This document shows, piece by piece, positions 53,043-64,000 of a DNA stretch of 64,000 nt (positions are counted from its first letter, which is position 1; each line of letters opens with the position of its first letter). The notes under the pieces were generated by a model. It was not told the DNA's origin and searched no databases. It was given only the letters and a program-made list of their open reading frames with translations. Position numbers and translations under genes: made by a program. Location: assembly GCF_003790525.1 (NCBI RefSeq), contig NZ_CP033635.1. One strand, given 5' to 3'. Source of the stretch: Escherichia coli. Lineage in GTDB: Bacteria > Pseudomonadota > Gammaproteobacteria > Enterobacterales > Enterobacteriaceae.

Positions 53043-54356
<1,314 letters not shown>

Positions 54357-54376
54357 TACCCAATTTTTCTGAATCT

Positions 54377-54399
54377 AAAAAGCGCCTGCGGGCGCTTTT
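54377..54399 (+). terminator. serS terminator
   Basis: AAAAAGCGCCTGCGGGCGCTTTT. Confidence 0.65.
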
Positions 54400-54554
54400 G
54401 CATGGTACTTAACTATATGAAAATAAATGGATTTTATTTTCATGTGTCCAGATAATGTCCATCTTTGAAGAAAAAAGTCCACAATACTGACGTTGTGGGC
54501 TTTTCTTTTTCCTGATGGTGTCGTGCCGTCAGTGCAACGAACCAAAGGGAGGGG

Positions 54555-54782
54555 ATGTTGATGTTGTTTTCCCTTCGCACCAGCTTTAAAGCCACTCTTG
54601 TTAACGATGATGGTACGCCACGGATCACGGCCGAGGTGAGGAATGTGACACCTGATGATATCGGGAAGGTGGCGGAACTTGTCAGGGATGTTTTTGGTAC
54701 TCCTTCCGGTACCTGCCGTTCAGACTCTGCGGCCAGGGTTGACAGGCAGGATGTTAACGCCGGGTGGCTTACGCGCCTCTGA
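54555..54782 (+). CDS. Hypothetical small protein (75 aa), possible distant paralogue of the 71-aa array protein
   Basis: Strong SD AGGGAGGGG before ATG; convergent with hok-like copy 1; shares the M.LF..R...GTP pattern with the 57756 ORF. Confidence 0.4.
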   Translation: MLMLFSLRTSFKATLVNDDGTPRITAEVRNVTPDDIGKVAELVRDVFGTPSGTCRSDSAARVDRQDVNAGWLTRL

Positions 54783-54932
54783 ATGATGATGCCCTCACTG
54801 GTGAGGGTGACAAAAAAGCCCTCTCAATGGCGGGCAAATCTGGTTTTTTGTTTTGTCTCTACAGGGAAAGGGCGCCATATCGGCCCACCCCAACAACCGG
54901 ATAGCGGGGAATTTCTCCCCCGCTGCGGTTTC

Positions 54933-55073
54933 TTACGGTTTACACTGCAAGAACGCCGCAAAACGCGCTCCCCAGATATCAAAGCTGAATTCACATAACG
55001 AATCGTGGACCATCCAGATGACCAGGGTTATTGTCAGGCATAAAATGCCAACAATAATCGTTTTTTGCGGTAT
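54933..55073 (-). pseudogene. Hok/Gef-family toxin homologue, copy 1, start codon ATG->ATA
   Basis: Hand-translated ...LCLTITLVIWMVHDSLCEFSFDIWGARFAAFLQCKP; the position aligned to the ATG of copy 2 is ATA (TAT at 55071-55073 on the + strand); overlapping mok-like frame 54991..55173. Confidence 0.45.
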
Positions 55074-55314
55074 AGCGCTTGCTCCTTTTACAAAGAGGCG
55101 CTAACCTTCCACTTGTCACGGTAGGAAGGGTCAGGCCTCGGTTAAACACAGATGTTTTCCGGGGCCTTTCCACATCCGGCCTTCAGGTTTTCCCTCCGGC
55201 CATCAGCCGAAAGGCACCCGTTTCTTTTTGTTGCGGCAATATTTCAGGTGTCAGTTGGGGTGGGCTGTATCTTGTCTGATGCATAAAAAAATGCCCGCGC
55301 TTTGGCGGGCAAAA

Positions 55315-55496
55315 GACAAGACTTTTCGTTTGTATATCATGGATAATGGACACCCCTTCCTGTTGTCAGGTGGCAGGCACCCGTGGTTAATCTACTGTTT
55401 TTGTGCTTTTGTCTCAACCCTGAAGTTTTCATGGAAAATCAGGGTTGCTTCATATGTGCCAGGAAGGTGCGGCTATGATAACTGCCAAAAAAAGCC
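55315..55496 (-). ncRNA. Structured repeat element X1 (candidate sRNA, subtype a)
   Basis: ~170 bp bounded by hairpins; internal perfect stems (CAACCCTGA...TCAGGGTTG, CCTTCC...GGAAGG); no SD-led ORF. Confidence 0.3.
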
Positions 55497-55525
55497 CGCT
55501 TTCCGGCGGGCAAAACAGCAATGTG

Positions 55526-55683
55526 AGTTGTCTGTCATTGATACTGGACAGCCTTCCTGTTGTCAGGTGGAAGGTACCCGTGGTTAATCTACTGTCTTTG
55601 TGCTTTTGTCTCAACCCTGAAGTTTTCATGGAAAATCAGGGTTGCTTCATGTGAACCAGGAAGGTGAGGCGATGGTAACCGCC
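55526..55683 (-). ncRNA. Structured repeat element X2 (candidate sRNA, subtype b)
   Basis: Near-identical core to X1 with a different distal end (CAGCAATGTGAGTTGTCTGTCATTGATACTGG). Confidence 0.3.
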
Positions 55684-55930
55684 AAAAAAATGCCCGCTTT
55701 CCGGCGGGCAAAACAAGGAAGTACGGATCATGTATTATTGATTACGAGGCATTCCACCATGCCCACGTTTAATTTAGCTAGTTTTCATTTTATTCACAAT
55801 ATAGTTACTTATCATATTTATGAACAAAACTGTAATTTCATCTATAGGTATAAGTGATTTGCATTAACATGTTTCTTCTGTATTGCTGTTGGTTTTCCGA
55901 TGCTGATATTTATGATACATTCAGGGGCAA

Positions 55931-56135
55931 ATGAGGTTGTTCCACAGAAACGATGTTGAGATATTTCTGCTCCAGAAAGGACAAGCTAAAAAAATAAAGT
56001 GAAATTATGATATGTCAGGGATGTTCAGGCATGTCAGTGTCTTATTAATAAACTCGTTGCTGCTGTAATAACACCAAAAAAATCAAAGCATAATCTGCAT
56101 GTTGTTCCTGATGACCCAATAACCACAAAAGAATA
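55931..56135 (+). pseudogene. Degenerate copy of the small array protein gene (frameshift/early stop)
   Basis: Begins MRLFHRNDVEI... then stops after 23 aa; the downstream DNA still aligns with the intact copy through ...CTGATGACCC(A/C)ATAACCACAAAAGAATAA. Confidence 0.4.
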
Positions 56136-56164
56136 AAAAAATGCCCGCTTTCCGGCGGGCAAAA

Positions 56165-56333
56165 CAGCAATGTGAGTTGTCTGTCATTGATACTGGACAC
56201 CCTTCCTGTTGTCAGGTGGAAGGCACCCGTGGTTAATCTACTGTCTTTGTGCTTTTGGCTCAACCCTGAAGTTTTCATGGAAAATCAGGGCTGCTTTGTG
56301 TGCGCCAGGGAAGGCGCCTCGATGGCAGGCGCA
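56165..56333 (-). ncRNA. Structured repeat element X3 (subtype b)
   Basis: Copy of X2 between hairpins at 56134 and 56333. Confidence 0.3.
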
Positions 56334-56586
56334 AAAAAAATGCCCGTGCTTCGGCGGGCAAAATAAGGAAGTACAGGTTACATGTTATTGATAAAGTAGC
56401 ATTGCTCTGTCCGTCTTTAATCTAACGAGTTTTGAGTTTTTTCACAATATTGTTACCTGTCATGTTATAGATGAAACTGCAATTTCATCTATAGGTATAA
56501 ATGATTTGTATTAATGTGTGTCCACTGTTTGTCTGCTTTCTGGTTTTCAGTTGACTGTGTTTCTGATGAATTCAGGAGGTTGTCTT

Positions 56587-56685
56587 ATGAGGCTGTTCCA
56601 CAGAAACGATATTGAGATTGAACTGCATTTCTCCTCCGGTGAGGATAAGGTTAAATCATTGTTGATGAAAAAAACAAAGATTTAA
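56587..56685 (+). pseudogene. 3'-truncated copy of the small array protein gene
   Basis: MRLFHRNDIEIELHFSSGEDKVKSLLMKKTKI*; AGGAGG SD; identical to the intact copy for 23 codons, then diverges. Confidence 0.35.
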
Positions 56686-56937
56686 TTTATTGATATAAAG
56701 GATTTGTATCAGCGTATGTCCACGCAGTGACCACATTTTCGAGAGGTAGAGTAAGCCCGCAACATTGCGGGCTTTGTCTTATAGTCTGATCACTGTTTCA
56801 AGTCGGTGAGGACACCAAAAAGAAAACCCGCAGTTTTTATGCTGCGGGTTTGTTGTTCATGTCTGTGAGATAGGGTGCCTTATCGACCTTACCCTGGCAA
56901 CCGATTGACGGGGGATTGCTCCCCCGTCGCGGTTTCC

Positions 56938-57078
56938 TTACTTCTTACATTGTAAGAACGCCGCAAACTCCGCTCCCCAGAAGCTCATCCGTATTTCGCA
57001 CAGCGAACCGTGCAATATCCAGATGATGAGGATTGCCGTCACGCAGAACGTGATGGCCGTAAGCGATTTTTGCGACAT
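56938..57078 (-). CDS. Hok/Gef-family type I toxin homologue (46 aa), copy 2, intact
   Basis: Hand-translated MSQKSLTAITFCVTAILIIWILHGSLCEIRMSFWGAEFAAFLQCKK: TM helix plus SLCE(I/L)R and AAFLxC signature of Hok proteins; fully overlapped by a mok-like frame (56945..57178). Confidence 0.65.
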   Translation of the reverse strand: MSQKSLTAITFCVTAILIIWILHGSLCEIRMSFWGAEFAAFLQCKK

Positions 57079-57335
57079 AGCACTTGCTCCTTTTCCGGAG
57101 AGGCGCTAACCTTTCACTTGTCAAGGTAATGCGGTTAGGGCCTCGGTTAAACAGAAATGTTTTCCGGGGCCTTTCCACATCCGGCCTTCAGGTTTTCCCT
57201 CCGGCCATCAGCCGAAAGGCACCCGCGCGTAATTTAACTGTTTCTTTTTGTTGCGGCAATATTTCAGGTGTCAGTTGGGGTGGGCTGTATCTTGTCTGAT
57301 GCATAAAAAAATGCCCGCGCTTCGGCGGGCAAAAA

Positions 57336-57504
57336 ACAAGACTTTTCGTTTGTATATCATGGATAATGGACACCCTTCCTGTTGTCAGGGGGAGGTACCC
57401 GTAGCTAATCTACTCACTTTGTGCCCGCAGCTCAACCCTGAAGTTTTCATGGAAAATCAGGGCTGCTTTGTGTGCGCCAGGGAAGGCGCCTCGATGGCAG
57501 GCGC
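57336..57504 (-). ncRNA. Structured repeat element X4 (subtype a)
   Basis: Copy of X1 between hairpins at 57305 and 57505. Confidence 0.3.
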
Positions 57505-57755
57505 AAAAAAAATGCCCGCTCTCCGGCGGGCAAAACAATGATCTACGTCACATTATATTGATAACCGGGCATTCCTCCATGCCCATTTTTAATTTAGCCA
57601 TTTTTCATTTTGTTCACAATATAGTTATCTATCATATTCATGAATGAAATTATAATTTCATCTATAGGTATAAATGATTTGTGTTAATATGTTTCTCCTG
57701 TCTAACTGTTTTCTCATTTTTCGATACTAGTATTTCTGATATATTCAGGGGGCGT

Positions 57756-57971
57756 ATGAGATTGTTCCGAAGAAACGATATTGAGATTGAACTGCATTTC
57801 TCCTCCGGTGAGGATAAGGTTAAATCAATAAAGGTGAAACTAAGACATGCCCGGGATGTTCAGGCGTGTCAGTGTCTTATTGATGAACTCGTTGCTGCCG
57901 GAGGAACGCCAAAAAAACAAAAATATAATCTGCACGTGGTTCCTGATGACCCCATAACCACAAAAGAATAA
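57756..57971 (+). CDS. Small basic protein (71 aa), intact copy of the array family
   Basis: MRLFRRNDIEIELHFSSGEDKVKSIKVKLRHARDVQACQCLIDELVAAGGTPKKQKYNLHVVPDDPITTKE; GGGGG SD; AT-rich promoter-like region upstream; two degenerate paralogues nearby. Confidence 0.5.
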   Translation: MRLFRRNDIEIELHFSSGEDKVKSIKVKLRHARDVQACQCLIDELVAAGGTPKKQKYNLHVVPDDPITTKE

Positions 57972-58113
57972 AAAAATGCCCGCTTTCCGGCGGGCAAAAA
58001 ACAATTTAGGTCATATTTCATCATGGATAATTAAATACTTGCCCGTGGTTGCGGGAAAGTATCTGCCGTTAATCTACTTGCCTTATGATGTCCTCTCAAC
58101 CTGATTATTGTTC

Positions 58114-58365
58114 TTAAATATCAAGATTAATCTGAGTATTCCCCCTGTGAGATCCCGGAAAATCTTCCCACGGTATCCGCTCTGTACCCTGCGGCGACGG
58201 GGCGCGTTTTGATGTGAATTTGTTAAAACCCTCCAGTGTGGTAAAGCCGATCCCGCATTCGAGGTTATTGCACTGGTAGTACTTCAGGCGAACTGTGCCT
58301 GAATCATTTTCATTGCGACTGGTGCGGATACGTGCGGATGCACCGCATAGGGGACAACGGAACAT
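58114..58365 (-). CDS. ogr: Ogr/Delta-family zinc-finger late transcription activator
   Basis: MFRCPLCG...YYQCNNLECG: CxxC...CxxxxC spacing as in P2 Ogr. Confidence 0.8.
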   Translation of the reverse strand: MFRCPLCGASARIRTSRNENDSGTVRLKYYQCNNLECGIGFTTLEGFNKFTSKRAPSPQGTERIPWEDFPGSHRGNTQINLDI

Positions 58366-58408
58366 GGCTTCTCCTTATCTGGCTGAGTGGAGATGGCTCA
58401 TTTTAATT

Positions 58409-59500
58409 TTATCCGCCTGAATCTGCTATCCATTCGGGGATTTTCGCTTCCAGCTCCAGTTGTGTGGTGAAGCCGCTTTCATCTATGATGTGCTCCACCC
58501 TGGCAATAATCCAGTCCTGATTGTCCACCTCGCTTTTAAAACCTGTTACCCTGCCGTGCATTTCGGGATACAGGTCGGCACGACCCCGTGCCAGAGTGAT
58601 GGAGAATGCCGCTGCTCCCCGCTGTAACTCCTGCCACTTTGCCGCAGCTGCACGTCGTGCGGTTTCTTCATTCTGGTAAGTCCTGCGCAGAACGTAGACG
58701 TTCCCTTCCGCGCCTTCCATGTAATCACCCTCCCGGCTGCTGCTCTTCTCCTGTTTCTGTTTCCCGGCTTCCCTGCGTCGCTTCACGTTCACTTTTTTCT
58801 TGTGCCCGAACTTCAGATCGAGCCAGTGCGCCCGGACCCCCGTATACGCATCACGGTCAGCAATGCGAAAGCGGTGACTGTCGCCGCTGCTGCGGGTAAT
58901 GGCGAACGAAGGCAGGGCTCTTCCGTCCGGCCCGGTTCCGCCACCCGGCAGAATGAATAACAGGCTGCCGTTTTTTACGGTGGCAATCGCACCCAGCATT
59001 TCAGCCATGCGGGTCAGGAAGGATATATCGCTCTCTTCGGTCTGGTCAGCGTGGTCAATTTCGATATCCATGAGGATTTCGCTTATCTGTGTCTTCAGGC
59101 CGTAGCGGTGAGCGATGGCTGACACAACCTGTTTTACGGTCACGTCGTGCCAGGATACCTCCCGCCTCACGTTGAACTCTTCCCGAAAATCTGCGCTGCT
59201 GGCGGTGATGATCAGTTTATCTGGAGGTCCTTCCCACGCAACCTCATCAACGACGTAGGTGCCCTTGTTAACCAGTGATTCTCCTCGCCAGCCAATCATC
59301 ACTCTCAGGCGTGCGCCACGTGGTGGCAACTGTAACTGCCCGTCCGTATCGTCAAGGGTGAGGGTGACGCGGTCTGCCTCAAAGGCCCGGTTATCCGTCA
59401 GGGTCAGCGTCATGAGTCGCTCTGTGAGGTTTGCCAGTGTGTTGTTGTTGATGGTGATGTCGATATCCGGTGACGGAACGGTAACTGACAGCTCTTTCAT
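58409..59500 (-). CDS. P2 gpD-like tail protein (late control D)
   Basis: ...LTLTDNRAFEADRVTLTLDD...DISFLTRMAE...SGDSHRFRIADRDAYTGVRAHW... parallels P2 D; start at MKELSV with AGGAGAG SD. Confidence 0.8.
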   Translation of the reverse strand: MKELSVTVPSPDIDITINNNTLANLTERLMTLTLTDNRAFEADRVTLTLDDTDGQLQLPPRGARLRVMIGWRGESLVNKGTYVVDEVAWEGPPDKLIITASSADFREEFNVRREVSWHDVTVKQVVSAIAHRYGLKTQISEILMDIEIDHADQTEESDISFLTRMAEMLGAIATVKNGSLLFILPGGGTGPDGRALPSFAITRSSGDSHRFRIADRDAYTGVRAHWLDLKFGHKKKVNVKRRREAGKQKQEKSSSREGDYMEGAEGNVYVLRRTYQNEETARRAAAAKWQELQRGAAAFSITLARGRADLYPEMHGRVTGFKSEVDNQDWIIARVEHIIDESGFTTQLELEAKIPEWIADSGG

Positions 59501-59661
59501 GGTGTTCTCTCCTGGTGCGTTCTGTAATGGTTTCATGCACCGCAGCGGCGTTGAATGGCTGTTTTGTTGTCGCTGTCAGGAGACAACATCAAAGGGGTGA
59601 GATTACCGCGTGTGTGGGTAATGATTACGCAAAATCAACCAGCCAGACAAGGGTGAAACAT

Positions 59662-60945
59662 ATGAGTGAAACACGCTTTCATGGTGCGCGCGTAAGGGAA
59701 AGTACCGGCCTTGCCACCGCCATTAATGATGTGGATTCCAGTGTTATTGGTATTGTGGCTACGGCAGATGACGCGGATGAAACTCTGTTCCCGCTGAACA
59801 AACCCACACTGCTGACCCGCGTCAGTGATGTGCTGGGTAAGGCCGGCACAAAGGGGACGCTTTACAAATCGCTTAAGGCTGTCGCCGACCAGGTGAGCAC
59901 GAAGGTGATTGTGGTGCGCGTTCCTGATGCCAGTTCTCAGGGCGCCCCGGATACAGGAGTTACATCATTCGGTCATCTGGATCCTGAAGACAGGGCATTT
60001 TTTGGTATTGATGAGTCTGAAGATGCACATCCTGTATACCCACACAAAACGCAGGACCAGTATGTCATTGGTGGCACGGATGGCGACGGTAATTATACCG
60101 GTATGTATGCACTTCTGATAGCTGAACAGGATGATGCCATCGGTTACCGTCCGCGCATCATCGCAGCTCCCGGACTGGATACTGAAGCTGTCACAAAATC
60201 CCTGTGTGTAATTGCAGAAAAACTTCGCGCATTTGTCTACGCGGGCTGTCACAACTGCAAGAAGCCCGCCGATGCAATCAGCTACCGCGCCAGATTTAAC
60301 GAGCGCGAACTTATGCTGGTCTGGCCGGACTTCATCGCCCATAACCCGAAATCCGGCGCTAATGAGGTCTTCCCGGCTGTGGCGTACGCCTGCGGTTTAC
60401 GTGCACGTATTGACCACGAACAGGGCTGGCATAAATCGCTGTCCAACGTGCCGGTAAGAAATGTGCTGGGTATTTCCAGCCCGGTGTTCTGGTCCCTTCA
60501 GTCCGAAGACAGCGATGCCAACAATCTCAACAACAAGGAAATCACTACCATCATTTGCCGTAACGGTTTCCGCTTCTGGGGCAACCGTACGCCGGAAACG
60601 AAGGCGTATATCTTTGAGGTGTACACGCGAACCGCTCAGGTGCTGGCTGATTCCATTGCGGAAGCGCAGTTTGAAACGATTGATGCCCCGCTGACCCCTG
60701 CTAATGTGAAAGACGTGTTAAGCGCAATTCGCGCAAAACTGGATGCGCTGGTTACGTCAGGACGTCTCATTGGTGCGGAGTGCTGGTATGACGTGGTGGA
60801 TAACAGCACCACGGAACTTCGTCAGGGACGCGTGCGTATCCGCTACAAGTACACGCCCGTTCCGCCGCTTGAGGATATGGAACTTTACCAGGCGTTTACT
60901 GATGAATTCTTTGGTCCTGCATTTGCGACGCTTGGAGGTGCTTAA
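59662..60945 (+). CDS. Contractile tail sheath protein (P2 FI-like)
   Basis: ...ETLFPLNKP...KLRAF...RELMLVWPDF...RIDHEQGWHKSLSNV...GFRFWGNRT...YTRTAQVLAD...YTPVPPLE collinear with P2 FI. Confidence 0.85.
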   Translation: MSETRFHGARVRESTGLATAINDVDSSVIGIVATADDADETLFPLNKPTLLTRVSDVLGKAGTKGTLYKSLKAVADQVSTKVIVVRVPDASSQGAPDTGVTSFGHLDPEDRAFFGIDESEDAHPVYPHKTQDQYVIGGTDGDGNYTGMYALLIAEQDDAIGYRPRIIAAPGLDTEAVTKSLCVIAEKLRAFVYAGCHNCKKPADAISYRARFNERELMLVWPDFIAHNPKSGANEVFPAVAYACGLRARIDHEQGWHKSLSNVPVRNVLGISSPVFWSLQSEDSDANNLNNKEITTIICRNGFRFWGNRTPETKAYIFEVYTRTAQVLADSIAEAQFETIDAPLTPANVKDVLSAIRAKLDALVTSGRLIGAECWYDVVDNSTTELRQGRVRIRYKYTPVPPLEDMELYQAFTDEFFGPAFATLGGA

Positions 60946-61463
60946 TGGCCGTACCAAAAAATCTCAGGGTGTTCACGCTGTTTACTGACGGGGTGAACCA
61001 GATTGGCAGGGTGACCGGCTTCACGCCCCCCAAACTGACCCGTAAAACGGAAGCCTATCGCGGTGGTGGTATGGCCGGCGCGGTGAATATCGACCTTGGT
61101 CTGGATGACGGCGCGCTGGATGCGAGTTTCACCATGGGCGGGCCGACCCGCGAACTGTTCCTTAAGTACGGCGGCACGATCGACGGTACGCTGCTGCGCT
61201 TTGTCGGTGAGTACTACAACGATGAAGAGCAGAGCGACCTGTATGAAATTGAGCTTCGCGGCCGCGTGACGGAAATTGATACGGGGGAGGCAAAACAGGG
61301 TGAGGTCACGTCTCACACCTATGCGGTCAGGAGTACCTACTACAAACTCAGCATTAACGACCGTCCGGTGCTGGAGATTGATTTACTGAACCACATCGAA
61401 CGCAAGGACGGCAAAAACGTCTTCCCGGACCGCGTGCGCTCGGCGATTGGTCTTGGTGGTTAA
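60945..61463 (+). CDS. Tail tube protein (P2 FII-like)
   Basis: ...PPKLTRKTEAYRGGGMAGAVNIDLGLDDGALD...EIDTGEAKQGE...; ATG overlaps the FI stop (TAATG). Confidence 0.85.
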   Translation: MAVPKNLRVFTLFTDGVNQIGRVTGFTPPKLTRKTEAYRGGGMAGAVNIDLGLDDGALDASFTMGGPTRELFLKYGGTIDGTLLRFVGEYYNDEEQSDLYEIELRGRVTEIDTGEAKQGEVTSHTYAVRSTYYKLSINDRPVLEIDLLNHIERKDGKNVFPDRVRSAIGLGG

Positions 61464-61513
61464 TGTTTCCCACGGCGGCGCGCGGCGTCGCCCCCTGATT
61501 TGAGGTTTTATGC

Positions 61514-61876
61514 ATGAAAGAAAATCCGGTTGTTGCCCCTGTTACTGACGGTGCTGATGCGGCGGACGTGACCAGTGAGCGCGGCGTGACGCTGAAAACG
61601 CCCCTTGTGCTCGGTAACAAAAAAATCACGTATGTGGAAATCACGCCTGCTGTACAGCAGGCCGGTTCACTGCGCGGGCTGTCACTGCTTGACGTGCTGA
61701 ACATGAAAACGGACGCGATGTTTGAGTTACTCCCGCGCGTCACTTCGCCGCGACTGGACGAGGTTCTGCTTAAGCGCATGGGGTCCGCTGATTTTATTCA
61801 GCTGTGCGGGGTGGCGGTTAATTTTTTGGCCGGTCAGGACTCTGGCGGGAAGAGCGGGGCGGCGACGGCAGGCTGA
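61514..61876 (+). CDS. Tail assembly chaperone (P2 E-like); a -1 frameshift at TTTTTTG would give an E'-like product ending at 62040
   Basis: Position between tube and tape-measure genes; slippery TTTTTTG at 61823-61829; -1 frame open to 62040 (...ITVVPFEHIEDFVADIAVIFNWSPAEIF...). Confidence 0.65.
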   Translation: MKENPVVAPVTDGADAADVTSERGVTLKTPLVLGNKKITYVEITPAVQQAGSLRGLSLLDVLNMKTDAMFELLPRVTSPRLDEVLLKRMGSADFIQLCGVAVNFLAGQDSGGKSGAATAG

Positions 61877-62026
61877 TAACCGTCGTGCCCTTTGAGCACA
61901 TTGAAGACTTTGTGGCGGATATCGCCGTTATTTTCAACTGGTCTCCCGCTGAAATCTTCCTGATGGATCCCGGCGAGGTGGTCGCCTGGCGTGAGCGGGC
62001 GGCCCTTCGCAGCGGGAACGCAGAGC

Positions 62027-64000
62027 ATGAAAACGCTTGATATACGGGTCGCCTTCAGCGCTGTTGACAGGCTGACCCGTCCCACCGAAAACGCCCGTCG
62101 CATGATGGGCCAGCTTGGCGACTCCATACAGAGAACGCAGGGTGCGATCAAAAACCTGGAACGCTACGCCCGTTCATTTGATCGCGCCCGCGAGGCTGCA
62201 AACAAGGCCGGAAACGGCATTGTCAGGGCGCAACGCCAGTTAAGCGCACTTCAGCAAATTCAGCGCGCCGGAACCGTGCTGTCTGACAAACAGAAAAAGC
62301 TGATGAACGATTTGAGCCTCAAACTTGAGCGTCTCAATGAGGTCCGTGCGCGTGAAGTTCAGCGAATGCGCGAACTGGGTGGTGAGCTGCGGCGCCACGG
62401 TATTGCGCTTTCCGGCAGTGACAACACCATTCAACAGGCCATACGGCGAACACAGCAATACAACGACCAGCTGGAACGCGAACGGCAGGCGCTGGCACGT
62501 GTCACGCAGGCACGCCAGCAATATTCCCGTGCTCAGGAGACGGCGGGAAAACTTAAAACGGTCGGACTTACGGCGGTTGGTACGGCGGCGGCAGGCGGCT
62601 ATGCGGCCGGACGTTTCCTGCAACCGGCGGTCAGTTTTGGTAAGGAGATGTCACGCGTCCAGGCGCTGACCCGTATTGACAAAAACAGTCCGCAGTTTAA
62701 GGCGCTGCGCGAACAGGCCATTAAGCTGGGCTCTGAAACGCAGTTTACCGCCGGTGATGCTGCCAGCGGTCAGGCGTTCCTTGCCATGGCCGGCTTCACA
62801 CCACAGGCCATACAGGCGGCGCTACCCGGCGTGCTTGATCTGGCAATGGCTGCAGGGATGGACCTGGGACAGACTGCCGATATCAGTTCGAATATCCTCA
62901 CACAGTTTGGTCTGTCCGCTGACCAGATGGATCGCGTGGGTGACACGCTGGCCGCCACCTTCACACGAACCAATACGGATCTCCGTTCACTGGGTGAAAC
63001 CATGAAGTACACGGGTCCGGTTGCAGCTTCACTTGGCCTGTCCCTTGAACAGGCGGCAGCCATGACGGGTGTCCTTGGCAGTGTGGGGATCCGTGGAAGT
63101 GATGCAGGTACGGCGCTGCGTGCCAGTCTGTCACGTCTGGTTGATCCGCCGAAGGCCGCTGCAATGGCACTGAAAGAGCTTGGCGTGGAGACGCAGAATG
63201 CTTACGGGAACATGCGCCGGATGGAAAATATCCTGAATGAGCTGTACCAGGCCACCCGAAAATACGGTAATGCCGCGCAGGTCTCCTTTTTCAGGGCTAT
63301 TGCCGGGCAGGAGTCCTATGTTTCCCTGATGAATCTTGTCACTGCGGCGGGGGAAAATAATCTTCCCCGTCTTACGCAGGAGATTGAACTGGCCACCGGG
63401 GAACTTAATCACACTGCCCGTGTTATGGCTGATAACCTGGACGGTGACCTGAAATCACTGAACAGCGCATGGGAAGGACTGCGTATCCGTGTCGCTGACC
63501 TCGTTGACGGGCCGCTGCGTTCTGTCACGCAGTCGTTCACCCGGGTTATTGCGAAAGTCACCGCGCTGGCTCAGGCGCACCCTGAACTGACAAAACAACT
63601 GCTGATTGCCGGTGGTGTACTGCTGGCTGCGGTTGCGGCCATGGGGGCGCTGTCACTTGCCACTGGTGTGTTGATGGGGCCGCTGGCAAAACTGCGTCTT
63701 GGGTTTGCCCTGCTGACCGGCACATCCGGCCTCGGTCGTGCGCTGCCGTTACTGACGCAGCTGCGCGGCGTACTCGGTGGTCCGCTGGGCGGTATCGGTG
63801 GCTGGCGCGTGCTGTTTGTCGGTATCACCTCCGGTGCCGGACGGTTTGCTGCACTGCTGGGCGTAGTTGCGGGGCGGCTTCGTGGTGTGCAGGCGGGACT
63901 TGGCGCGCTGCGTGGTGGTCTGCTGGCTGCGTTCACTTCACCTGGCGGCGCACTGATTTCACTGGGGCGCGGTATCGGAATACTGGCGCTCAGACTGTCA
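62027..64000 (+). CDS. Tail tape-measure protein (P2 T-like); 3' end lies outside the window
   Basis: Hand-translated frame open from ATG 62027 to the window end (MKTLDIRVAFSAVDRL...); coiled-coil N-terminus and Gly/Ala-rich hydrophobic segments; absent from the ORF track because no stop lies in the window. Confidence 0.7.
   Translation, partial: MKTLDIRVAFSAVDRLTRPTENARRMMGQLGDSIQRTQGAIKNLERYARSFDRAREAANKAGNGIVRAQRQLSALQQIQRAGTVLSDKQKKLMNDLSLKLERLNEVRAREVQRMRELGGELRRHGIALSGSDNTIQQAIRRTQQYNDQLERERQALARVTQARQQYSRAQETAGKLKTVGLTAVGTAAAGGYAAGRFLQPAVSFGKEMSRVQALTRIDKNSPQFKALREQAIKLGSETQFTAGDAASGQAFLAMAGFTPQAIQAALPGVLDLAMAAGMDLGQTADISSNILTQFGLSADQMDRVGDTLAATFTRTNTDLRSLGETMKYTGPVAASLGLSLEQAAAMTGVLGSVGIRGSDAGTALRASLSRLVDPPKAAAMALKELGVETQNAYGNMRRMENILNELYQATRKYGNAAQVSFFRAIAGQESYVSLMNLVTAAGENNLPRLTQEIELATGELNHTARVMADNLDGDLKSLNSAWEGLRIRVADLVDGPLRSVTQSFTRVIAKVTALAQAHPELTKQLLIAGGVLLAAVAAMGALSLATGVLMGPLAKLRLGFALLTGTSGLGRALPLLTQLRGVLGGPLGGIGGWRVLFVGITSGAGRFAALLGVVAGRLRGVQAGLGALRGGLLAAFTSPGGALISLGRGIGILALRLS

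Follow-up and report, generated by a model that had tools for sequence, protein, structure and literature searches.

Our analysis points to a decayed toxin gene at the end of a P2-like prophage remnant in Escherichia coli. The window, by which we mean the whole stretch of 64,000 nt that was analysed (contig NZ_CP033635.1), carries two hok-like copies, and we consider it probable, at roughly 85%, that the first of these (copy 1) is a pseudogenised hok of a hok/mok/sok type I toxin-antitoxin locus, with toxin expression disabled by three lesions. These lesions are an ATA in place of the ATG start codon, a 15-bp deletion by which the -10 box is lost along with everything up to the point where the hok mRNA would start, and the erosion of the terminator hairpin. 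The rest of the architecture is still readable, as is expected when a short locus has decayed recently; it comprises the 46-codon frame with its Shine-Dalgarno sequence, the mok frame and the tac/fbi closure. The sequence states themselves are fixed in every isolate genome examined and absent from eight intact relatives. Presumably no toxin is made from copy 1.

Frame, family and start codon of hok copy 1

hok copy 1 is a 46-codon frame of the Hok family on the minus strand (Table 1). Its translation, read from 55073 to 54933, is IPQKTIIVGILCLTITLVIWMVHDSLCEFSFDIWGARFAAFLQCKP, and neither a stop nor a frameshift occurs over the 46 codons. The frame aligns without gaps to the product of copy 2 (MSQKSLTAITFCVTAILIIWILHGSLCEIRMSFWGAEFAAFLQCKK), and FAAFLQCK is common to both. 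This codon-for-codon correspondence had been described in the first-pass annotation, but the amino acid identity of about 60% given there has to be corrected to 23/46 (50%, positives 65%, BLASTP E 6e-18). The plus strand reads 'tat' at 55071-55073, which gives ATA as the sense codon, located 8 nt after GGAG and in the same position as the ATG of copy 2, so that the ATA noted earlier at the aligned initiator is real. Upstream, the frame is limited by a TAG ten codons before the ATA; none of the ten codons in between is ATG, GTG or TTG, and none of these codons occurs in frame before Met21, the first canonical start, which would give a 26-aa ORF (54933-55013). The statement that no usual start codon lies nearby in frame is thus confirmed, and a missed alternative start can be dismissed. 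The end coordinate 55173 that had been assigned to the copy corresponds to the GTG from which the mok-like frame (55173-54991) runs, overlapping that of hok.

Table 1. Coordinates of the features of hok copy 1 and of the intact reference copy 2 in the window.
Feature	Position	Strand	Description
hok promoter remnant	55220..55239	-	-35 TTGCCG at 55234-55239 plus spacer; -10 TAAATT missing; junction 55221/55220
tac element, putative hok mRNA 5' end, GGGTGCCTTTCGGC	55206..55219	-	start of Rfam model; pairs with 54870-54884
mok-like overlapping frame	54991..55173	-	GTG 55171-55173 to TGA 54991-54993; 60 codons; intact
Predicted Sok RNA of copy 1 (Sok1)	55115..~55172	+	about 58 nt; putative ends
Sok promoter TTGCTC-17-TAACCT	55079..55107	+	intact; both hexamers invariant in nine loci
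hok Shine-Dalgarno GGAG	55082..55085	-	intact, 8 nt upstream of ATA; AAAGGAGCAAG invariant in nine loci
hok copy 1 frame	54933..55073	-	46 codons plus TAA; aligned initiator ATA at 55071-55073; Pfam, NCBIfam and PHROG matches
TTTGCGGCGT (Phe-Ala-Ala-Phe codons)	54953..54962	-	predicted partner of start region AURYCGCAAA; columns 152-161/263-272
fbi element, GCCGATATGGCGCCC	54870..54884	-	pairs with mRNA 5' end in MFE and consensus folds
Eroded terminator	54812..54835	-	4-bp stem, 10-nt loop, T6; -5.8 kcal/mol
Intact reference hok copy 2 locus	56817..57259	-	RefSeq WP_000078913.1, Hok/Gef family protein
Copy 2 promoter	57231-57259	-	
Copy 2 tac	57211-57224	-	
Copy 2 ATG	57076-57078	-	
Copy 2 ORF	56938-57078	-	
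Copy 2 fbi	56873-56887	-	
Copy 2 terminator	56817-56851	-	

Judging from family-level protein and RNA matches together with a conserved mRNA fold, the copy 1 locus is a real hok locus. The frame is that of a small Hok/Gef-family toxin, with a match to Pfam HOK_GEF (PF01848; i-E 1e-4, residues 10-44) in addition to the gap-free alignment to WP_000078913.1, and it matches PHROG 251 with an E-value of 2e-17. Among the NCBIfam models the best match is HokA (E 4e-10), which stays below the curated equivalog cut-off (39.5 vs 89 bits), so that copy 1 is not a hokA orthologue; the match to the NCBIfam Hok family (E 2e-4) is likewise below its curated cut-off. Rfam RF01794 is matched by copy 1 with 48.1 bits (E 2.5e-8) and by copy 2 with 46.2 bits (E 7.9e-8), both below the gathering score of 59 bits. 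Many further homologues in E. coli genomes carry a Hok/Gef annotation.

For comparison we aligned copy 1 with eight intact loci (nine loci in all): copy 2, the copA-linked loci L003 and L008, the tandem loci L011a and L011b downstream of ogr, the O157 locus L012, the ihfA-linked locus L013 and the serS-linked locus L014. All eight relatives have ATG at the hok start and copy 1 alone has ATA. Since ATGCCG (Met-Pro) is present in the intact relatives L011 and L012, a single G to A transition is enough to give the ATA of copy 1, and a compensatory double change in the start-codon helix (ATGTCG to ATACCG) was dropped as an explanation for the same reason. The product of the copA-linked loci L003 and L008 (P0002) is 91% identical to that of copy 1. 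Nine substitutions separate copy 1 from the copA-linked allele, about four of them synonymous by our own count, a number that was too small for the inference on selection that we had considered and dropped. The copA-linked loci (L003-L010), which encode this closest ATG-bearing relative, show a peculiarity of their own, with SLCG in place of SLCE and hence Gly for the Glu of the Cys-Glu motif, which is kept in the other eight loci compared. The underlying base change also turns the mok TGA into TGG and lengthens mok in these loci, and the P0002 toxin may itself be impaired.

Transcription signals, mRNA fold and antisense RNA

Upstream of the hok leader, all eight relatives carry the motif TTGC[CG][GC]-17-TA.ATT, which ends exactly 6 nt before GGG(T/C)GCC, a spacing that is kept even in L008, L011 and L012, where no alignment is possible further upstream. 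We infer that the conserved TTGCnn-17-TAnATT is the hok promoter and that hok transcription starts at GGGTGCC, where both the Rfam model and the 5'-3' pairing begin. With this 5' end the hexamer spans -12 to -7, the same position as that of the -10 box in R1 hok. Copy 1, alone of the nine loci, has lost 15 bp (CAGTTAAATTACGCG) at the junction 55220/55221, and the deleted nucleotides comprise the -10 box TAnATT and the 6 nt up to the mRNA 5' end. In our own hexamer scoring the best remaining sigma-70-like match in copy 1 reached 6/12 and was misplaced, and no promoter for a mok-hok mRNA was recognised there. The built-in promoter scan (threshold 9/12) missed the hok promoter in both copies and did not discriminate between them, and it was replaced by the comparative evidence and the hexamer scoring. 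A strong terminator (55292-55311) lies between copy 1 and the upstream unit; read-through from that unit into copy 1 is possible despite this intervening terminator.

At the other end of the transcript, the terminator hairpin of copy 1 has a predicted energy of -5.8 kcal/mol as compared to -10.9 to -13.9 kcal/mol in the eight relatives, and the terminator scan detected the terminator of copy 2 but not that of copy 1. The long-range pairing between the 5' and 3' ends is predicted to be retained, since 55206-55219 pairs with 54870-54884 in the MFE fold of copy 1 (z = -4.67), and the consensus fold of the nine loci keeps 13 tac/fbi pairs with covariation between columns 4 and 356 (UA:6, UG:2, CG:1). 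In the same consensus fold the start region AUGYCGCAAA (55064-55073 in the window) is paired with UUUGCGGCGU, the FAAF codons near the C-terminus, and the G-C pair of the start codon within this helix is replaced by A.C in copy 1 only. Pairing of the start region would explain the invariance of the Phe-Ala-Ala-Phe stretch at the nucleotide level.

The mok-like frame of copy 1, which runs from a conserved GTG, precedes the hok frame by one base and stays open where hok starts, in the same phase relation as in R1. Its early TGA (54991-54993) was considered as a further lesion and dropped, because it is made by the hok codons TGT-GAA and the same TGA is present in L011a, L011b, L012, L013 and L014. 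Opposite the mok/hok leader, the sequence of copy 1 retains a putative antisense Sok gene with its own promoter, whose geometry matches that of R1 sok. The predicted Sok1 has a single-stranded 5' tail followed by a stem-loop. It differs from the predicted Sok RNA of copy 2 (Sok2) at 8 of the first 22 nt, and the predicted energies of the Sok1/Sok2 cross-duplexes are about half of those of the cognate pairs.

Carrier genomes and prophage context

The copy 1 allele was found at an identity of at least 99% in 26 of 5,426 complete E. coli genomes; the carriers were sequenced independently and come from several countries and hosts. Over the 201 nt that cover the ATA and the promoter junction, 14 of the 26 carriers are 100% identical to the window and the remaining 12 show one base or a short end mismatch. 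Five of these twelve (L015-L019) were read directly and all have ATA CCG, which was also found in L002, L021, L022 and L023-L026. ATA and the 15-bp deletion occur together in every carrier genome read and in the 14 that are identical over 201 nt, as well as in several draft assemblies and one metagenome contig, and the -10 box is deleted in all isolate genomes examined. A few strains carry extra SNPs in the copy 1 locus, including a G to A change inside the tac element. A comparison with orthologous loci of other strains had been proposed in the first-pass annotation, and it shows that ATA is kept among the carriers examined where the eight intact relatives have ATG. That the ATA is a sequencing or assembly error, the concern raised there, or that the frame is a chance ORF, is almost certainly wrong, and nothing was found in its favour: ATA was found in every copy read base by base, the sequence is the same in independent complete genomes and in draft and metagenome assemblies, and a chance ORF is contradicted by the family-level protein and RNA matches and by the conserved mRNA fold.

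Annotation of the locus is inconsistent (P0001, P0003). RefSeq complete genomes are blank at this position, with a gene annotated under the copy 1 match in 0/26 carriers, while some pipelines annotate a Hok/Gef protein of 46 aa that begins at the ATA (P0001; L002 gene 1354-1494), as do some NCBI TPA records, and other NCBI TPA records have a hypothetical protein of 26 aa with Met21 as its start. In the gene-position index the exact 46-aa product, called from ATA, is present in 1,667 blocks. P0001 (98% identical, annotated as Hok/Gef with an M start) was considered as an ATG-bearing orthologue and rejected, since the DNA (L002 1354-1356) reads ATA and the "M" follows from a convention of annotation. 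In view of the promoter deletion and the eroded terminator, the copy 1 locus should be marked as a pseudogene in public annotation.

A scan of metagenomes for the Sok target of copy 1 returned two contigs, L021 and L022, both with ATA. L021 has the ATA and the promoter deletion as in the window, with a single differing base over the 460 nt that were compared downstream of the mRNA start. L022 (OLRM01003560.1; 2,329 nt, matching window 54345-56658) has the ATA with the 15 nt retained, and from the BLAST identity of 99.36% over 2,329 nt this 15-nt indel is the only difference from the window. L022 may represent a real intermediate, or it may have arisen as an artefact of assembly. On each side of the indel, copy 1 and copy 2 are identical over about 70-80 nt, and bubbles of this type are merged by short-read assemblers (repeat collapse), so that an artefact is possible. 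If L022 is real, the ATA would have come first and the promoter deletion later, which fits a stepwise decay, and a transcribed ATA allele would exist or have existed.

The window belongs to the E. coli chromosome, and its genes are arranged in the order lrp-ftsK-lolA-rarA-serS (serS at 53064-54356, plus strand). They are followed by a repeat-rich stretch of about 4 kb, for the most part without RefSeq annotation, which holds both hok copies on the minus strand. Beyond the repeats lies the remnant of a P2-like prophage, in which ogr, gpD, sheath, tube and gpE are present together with a tape-measure gene that is truncated, and the copy 1 locus is found at the ogr-proximal end of this remnant, adjoining serS. 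Intact relatives are located directly downstream of ogr at the prophage end. The Hok subfamily of copy 1 is routine cargo of this position at the ends of P2-like prophages, next to serS, ihfA, copA and at other sites. In the window the end module is duplicated in tandem and partly degenerate, 54800-56164 resembling 56800-57999 with a partial module between them.

Several further observations concern this region. In the remnant (~58300-64000; L001), gpD and ogr have the opposite orientation to the sheath-tube-gpE-tape-measure block and the tape-measure gene is truncated, so that the prophage is rearranged and defective. The same remnant occurs in E. coli SCU-115 (L020; NZ_CP054368.1 2848895-2861095), where it carries copy 1 only, adjoins zapB-glpF instead of serS and is devoid of a segment equivalent to window 56658-57303, the segment that holds hok copy 2. 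This arrangement suggests recombination between the repeat modules and either a chromosomal rearrangement or a second insertion site. As a whole, the repeat region consists of a tandemly duplicated module of about 2 kb. One of its units is present in five copies on the minus strand (55285-55418, 55487-55615, 56135-56264, 57305-57436 and 57970-58100), each with a promoter-like box GTTGAG-17-TAGATTA and, about 95 nt later, a near-identical terminator (GCCCGCCGGAAAGCGGGCATTTTTTT). The predicted RNAs have the typical shape of sRNAs, consisting of a 5' stem-loop, about 35 nt of single strand in three variants and the terminator; in the ogr-proximal copy the 5' hairpin is retained, although its sequence is different. 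ACUCACAUUGCUG occurs in one variant and gave a weak RyhB-like Rfam match (E 0.78). For the unit, no Rfam family was found at E <= 1, and the phage collection gave no match. Of the 5,426 complete E. coli genomes, only 30 have the unit. We considered these upstream units of about 95 nt as internally deleted "mini-hok" transcripts because of the common GGGTGCC 5' end, -10 box and terminator type, but this could not be established, as the ogr-proximal unit differs in its 5' hairpin sequence.

A second repeated unit on the minus strand (55684-55744, with repeats at 56309-56403 and 57481-57575) ends with the same terminator type and is divergent from small plus-strand ORFs (MRLF[HR]RND...) at 55931-56002, 56586-56685 and 57756-57971. 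Only the last of these ORFs is intact (WP_001236182.1, hypothetical; PHROG 14142, unknown function) and the other two are truncated. Between copy 1 and serS, and convergent with copy 1, lies a 75-aa ORF (54555-54782, plus strand) that had no NCBIfam or PHROG match; the copA-linked loci have a 73-aa counterpart in the same position beside hok.

Alternative readings and known hok systems

Between an inactivated toxin and a dependence on unusual initiation, the two options offered by the first-pass annotation, the evidence favours inactivation, since the -10 box is lost and the terminator degraded besides the change from ATG to ATA, two lesions that the first-pass annotation had not noticed. Single substitutions at the third position of the start codon (G176T) or in the -10 box of R1 hok abolish killing (PMC9841398), and initiation at AUA reaches about 1-2% of that at AUG in E. 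coli reporters (bioRxiv 10.1101/063800). Either the ATA or the loss of the -10 box alone would thus be expected to silence hok, and the two lesions together make expression of copy 1 hok very unlikely. Arguing against a pseudogene are the open 46-codon frame, the intact mok, tac/fbi and Sok promoter, the fact that some pipelines call a protein, and L022. These features could also belong to an attenuated functional toxin, in which Hok would be translated at a low level from AUA while mok-translating ribosomes open the start region, from a transcript supplied by a residual or read-through promoter or, in L022-like alleles, by the intact promoter. The intact Shine-Dalgarno sequence, the residual initiation known for AUA, the combination of ATA with an intact -10 box in L022 and the wide occurrence of the allele in the gene-position index are compatible with such a toxin. 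We regard it as decidedly unlikely, as every isolate genome examined has the -10 box deleted, G176T in R1 hok is itself a loss-of-toxicity suppressor, the terminator is eroded, L022 may be an artefact, and an intact frame of 141 nt is expected by chance after so little divergence.

The Sok promoter is untouched and the locus may therefore still make Sok RNA. Copy 1 could accordingly be an orphan antitoxin locus with a dead hok, where Sok1 would still be made and would be retained because it counteracts a matching hok mRNA brought in by a related P2-like phage, or because it has another target. Although the invariant promoter hexamers, the canonical shape of the predicted Sok1 and the 100% conservation of the 86 nt around Sok1 (Sok/sokT) in 26/26 carriers, with SNPs elsewhere in the locus, would be in agreement with this, we give it little probability. 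With about five SNPs in 521 nt by our own rough count, their lack in the 86 nt does not reach significance (P ~0.4). The next-best match to these 86 nt in the 5,426 complete E. coli genomes is at 88.8%, so that no intact hok with the Sok target of copy 1 was found among them, and no exact match to this target was found in viral contigs or species-representative genomes. Furthermore, the divergence of Sok1 from Sok2 and the weak predicted cross-duplexes speak against this reading, and chromosomal Soks do not cross-protect against R1 hok (PMC9841398). A wider proposal, in which hok is dead and the locus is kept as an RNA gene, with Sok1, the one part whose promoter is intact, acting as an orphan antisense RNA and shielding the lysogen from a related P2-like phage with a matching hok, or in which alternatively the ATA allele with intact promoter is a deliberately attenuated toxin with AUA translated via mok coupling, appears rather unlikely to us. 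A new question would arise only if Sok1 proves to be expressed and functional. As a pseudogenised hok, the reading that we prefer, copy 1 is a new, ordinary decayed member of a well-known family.

Inactivation is the ordinary fate of chromosomal hok genes. The chromosomal hokA-E of E. coli K-12 were reportedly found by Pedersen and Gerdes in 1999 to be mostly inactivated. In most of the K-12 hok loci the disruption is due to IS elements or to rearrangements. Copy 1 resembles them as a chromosomal homologue silenced by mutation with a largely recognisable regulatory RNA architecture, and differs from them in its lesions, a start-codon transition and a 15-bp promoter deletion. With hok/mok/sok (parB) of R1 it shares the small membrane toxin frame with the Cys-Glu motif, a mok frame one base ahead and a Sok promoter whose -35 box overlaps the hok Shine-Dalgarno sequence, and R1 and the family described here have in common the tac/fbi closure of the full-length mRNA and the position of the -10 box (PMC9841398). 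Unlike R1 hok, copy 1 encodes 46 aa instead of 52 aa, matches at the family level (Pfam E 1e-4; Rfam below the gathering score), is chromosomal and prophage-borne rather than plasmid-borne, and has no start codon, -10 box or sound terminator. It is thereby a natural example of the lesions, in the start codon and in the -10 box, that were recovered by laboratory suppressor screens of R1 hok. Among phage-borne relatives, the characterised example is hokW-sokW of the Stx2 prophage Sp5, a prophage-borne hok/sok locus as well, and HokW, a protein of 51 aa, has been shown to be toxic and Sok-regulated (PMC8621323). 'MokW-like host killing' genes, the members of PHROG 251, occur in P2-like phages such as P88, and the leader and coding DNA of copy 1 is 77-79% identical to loci in P88 and Stx phages. 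Copy 1 differs from hokW in being a decayed allele and in the sequence of its Sok target.
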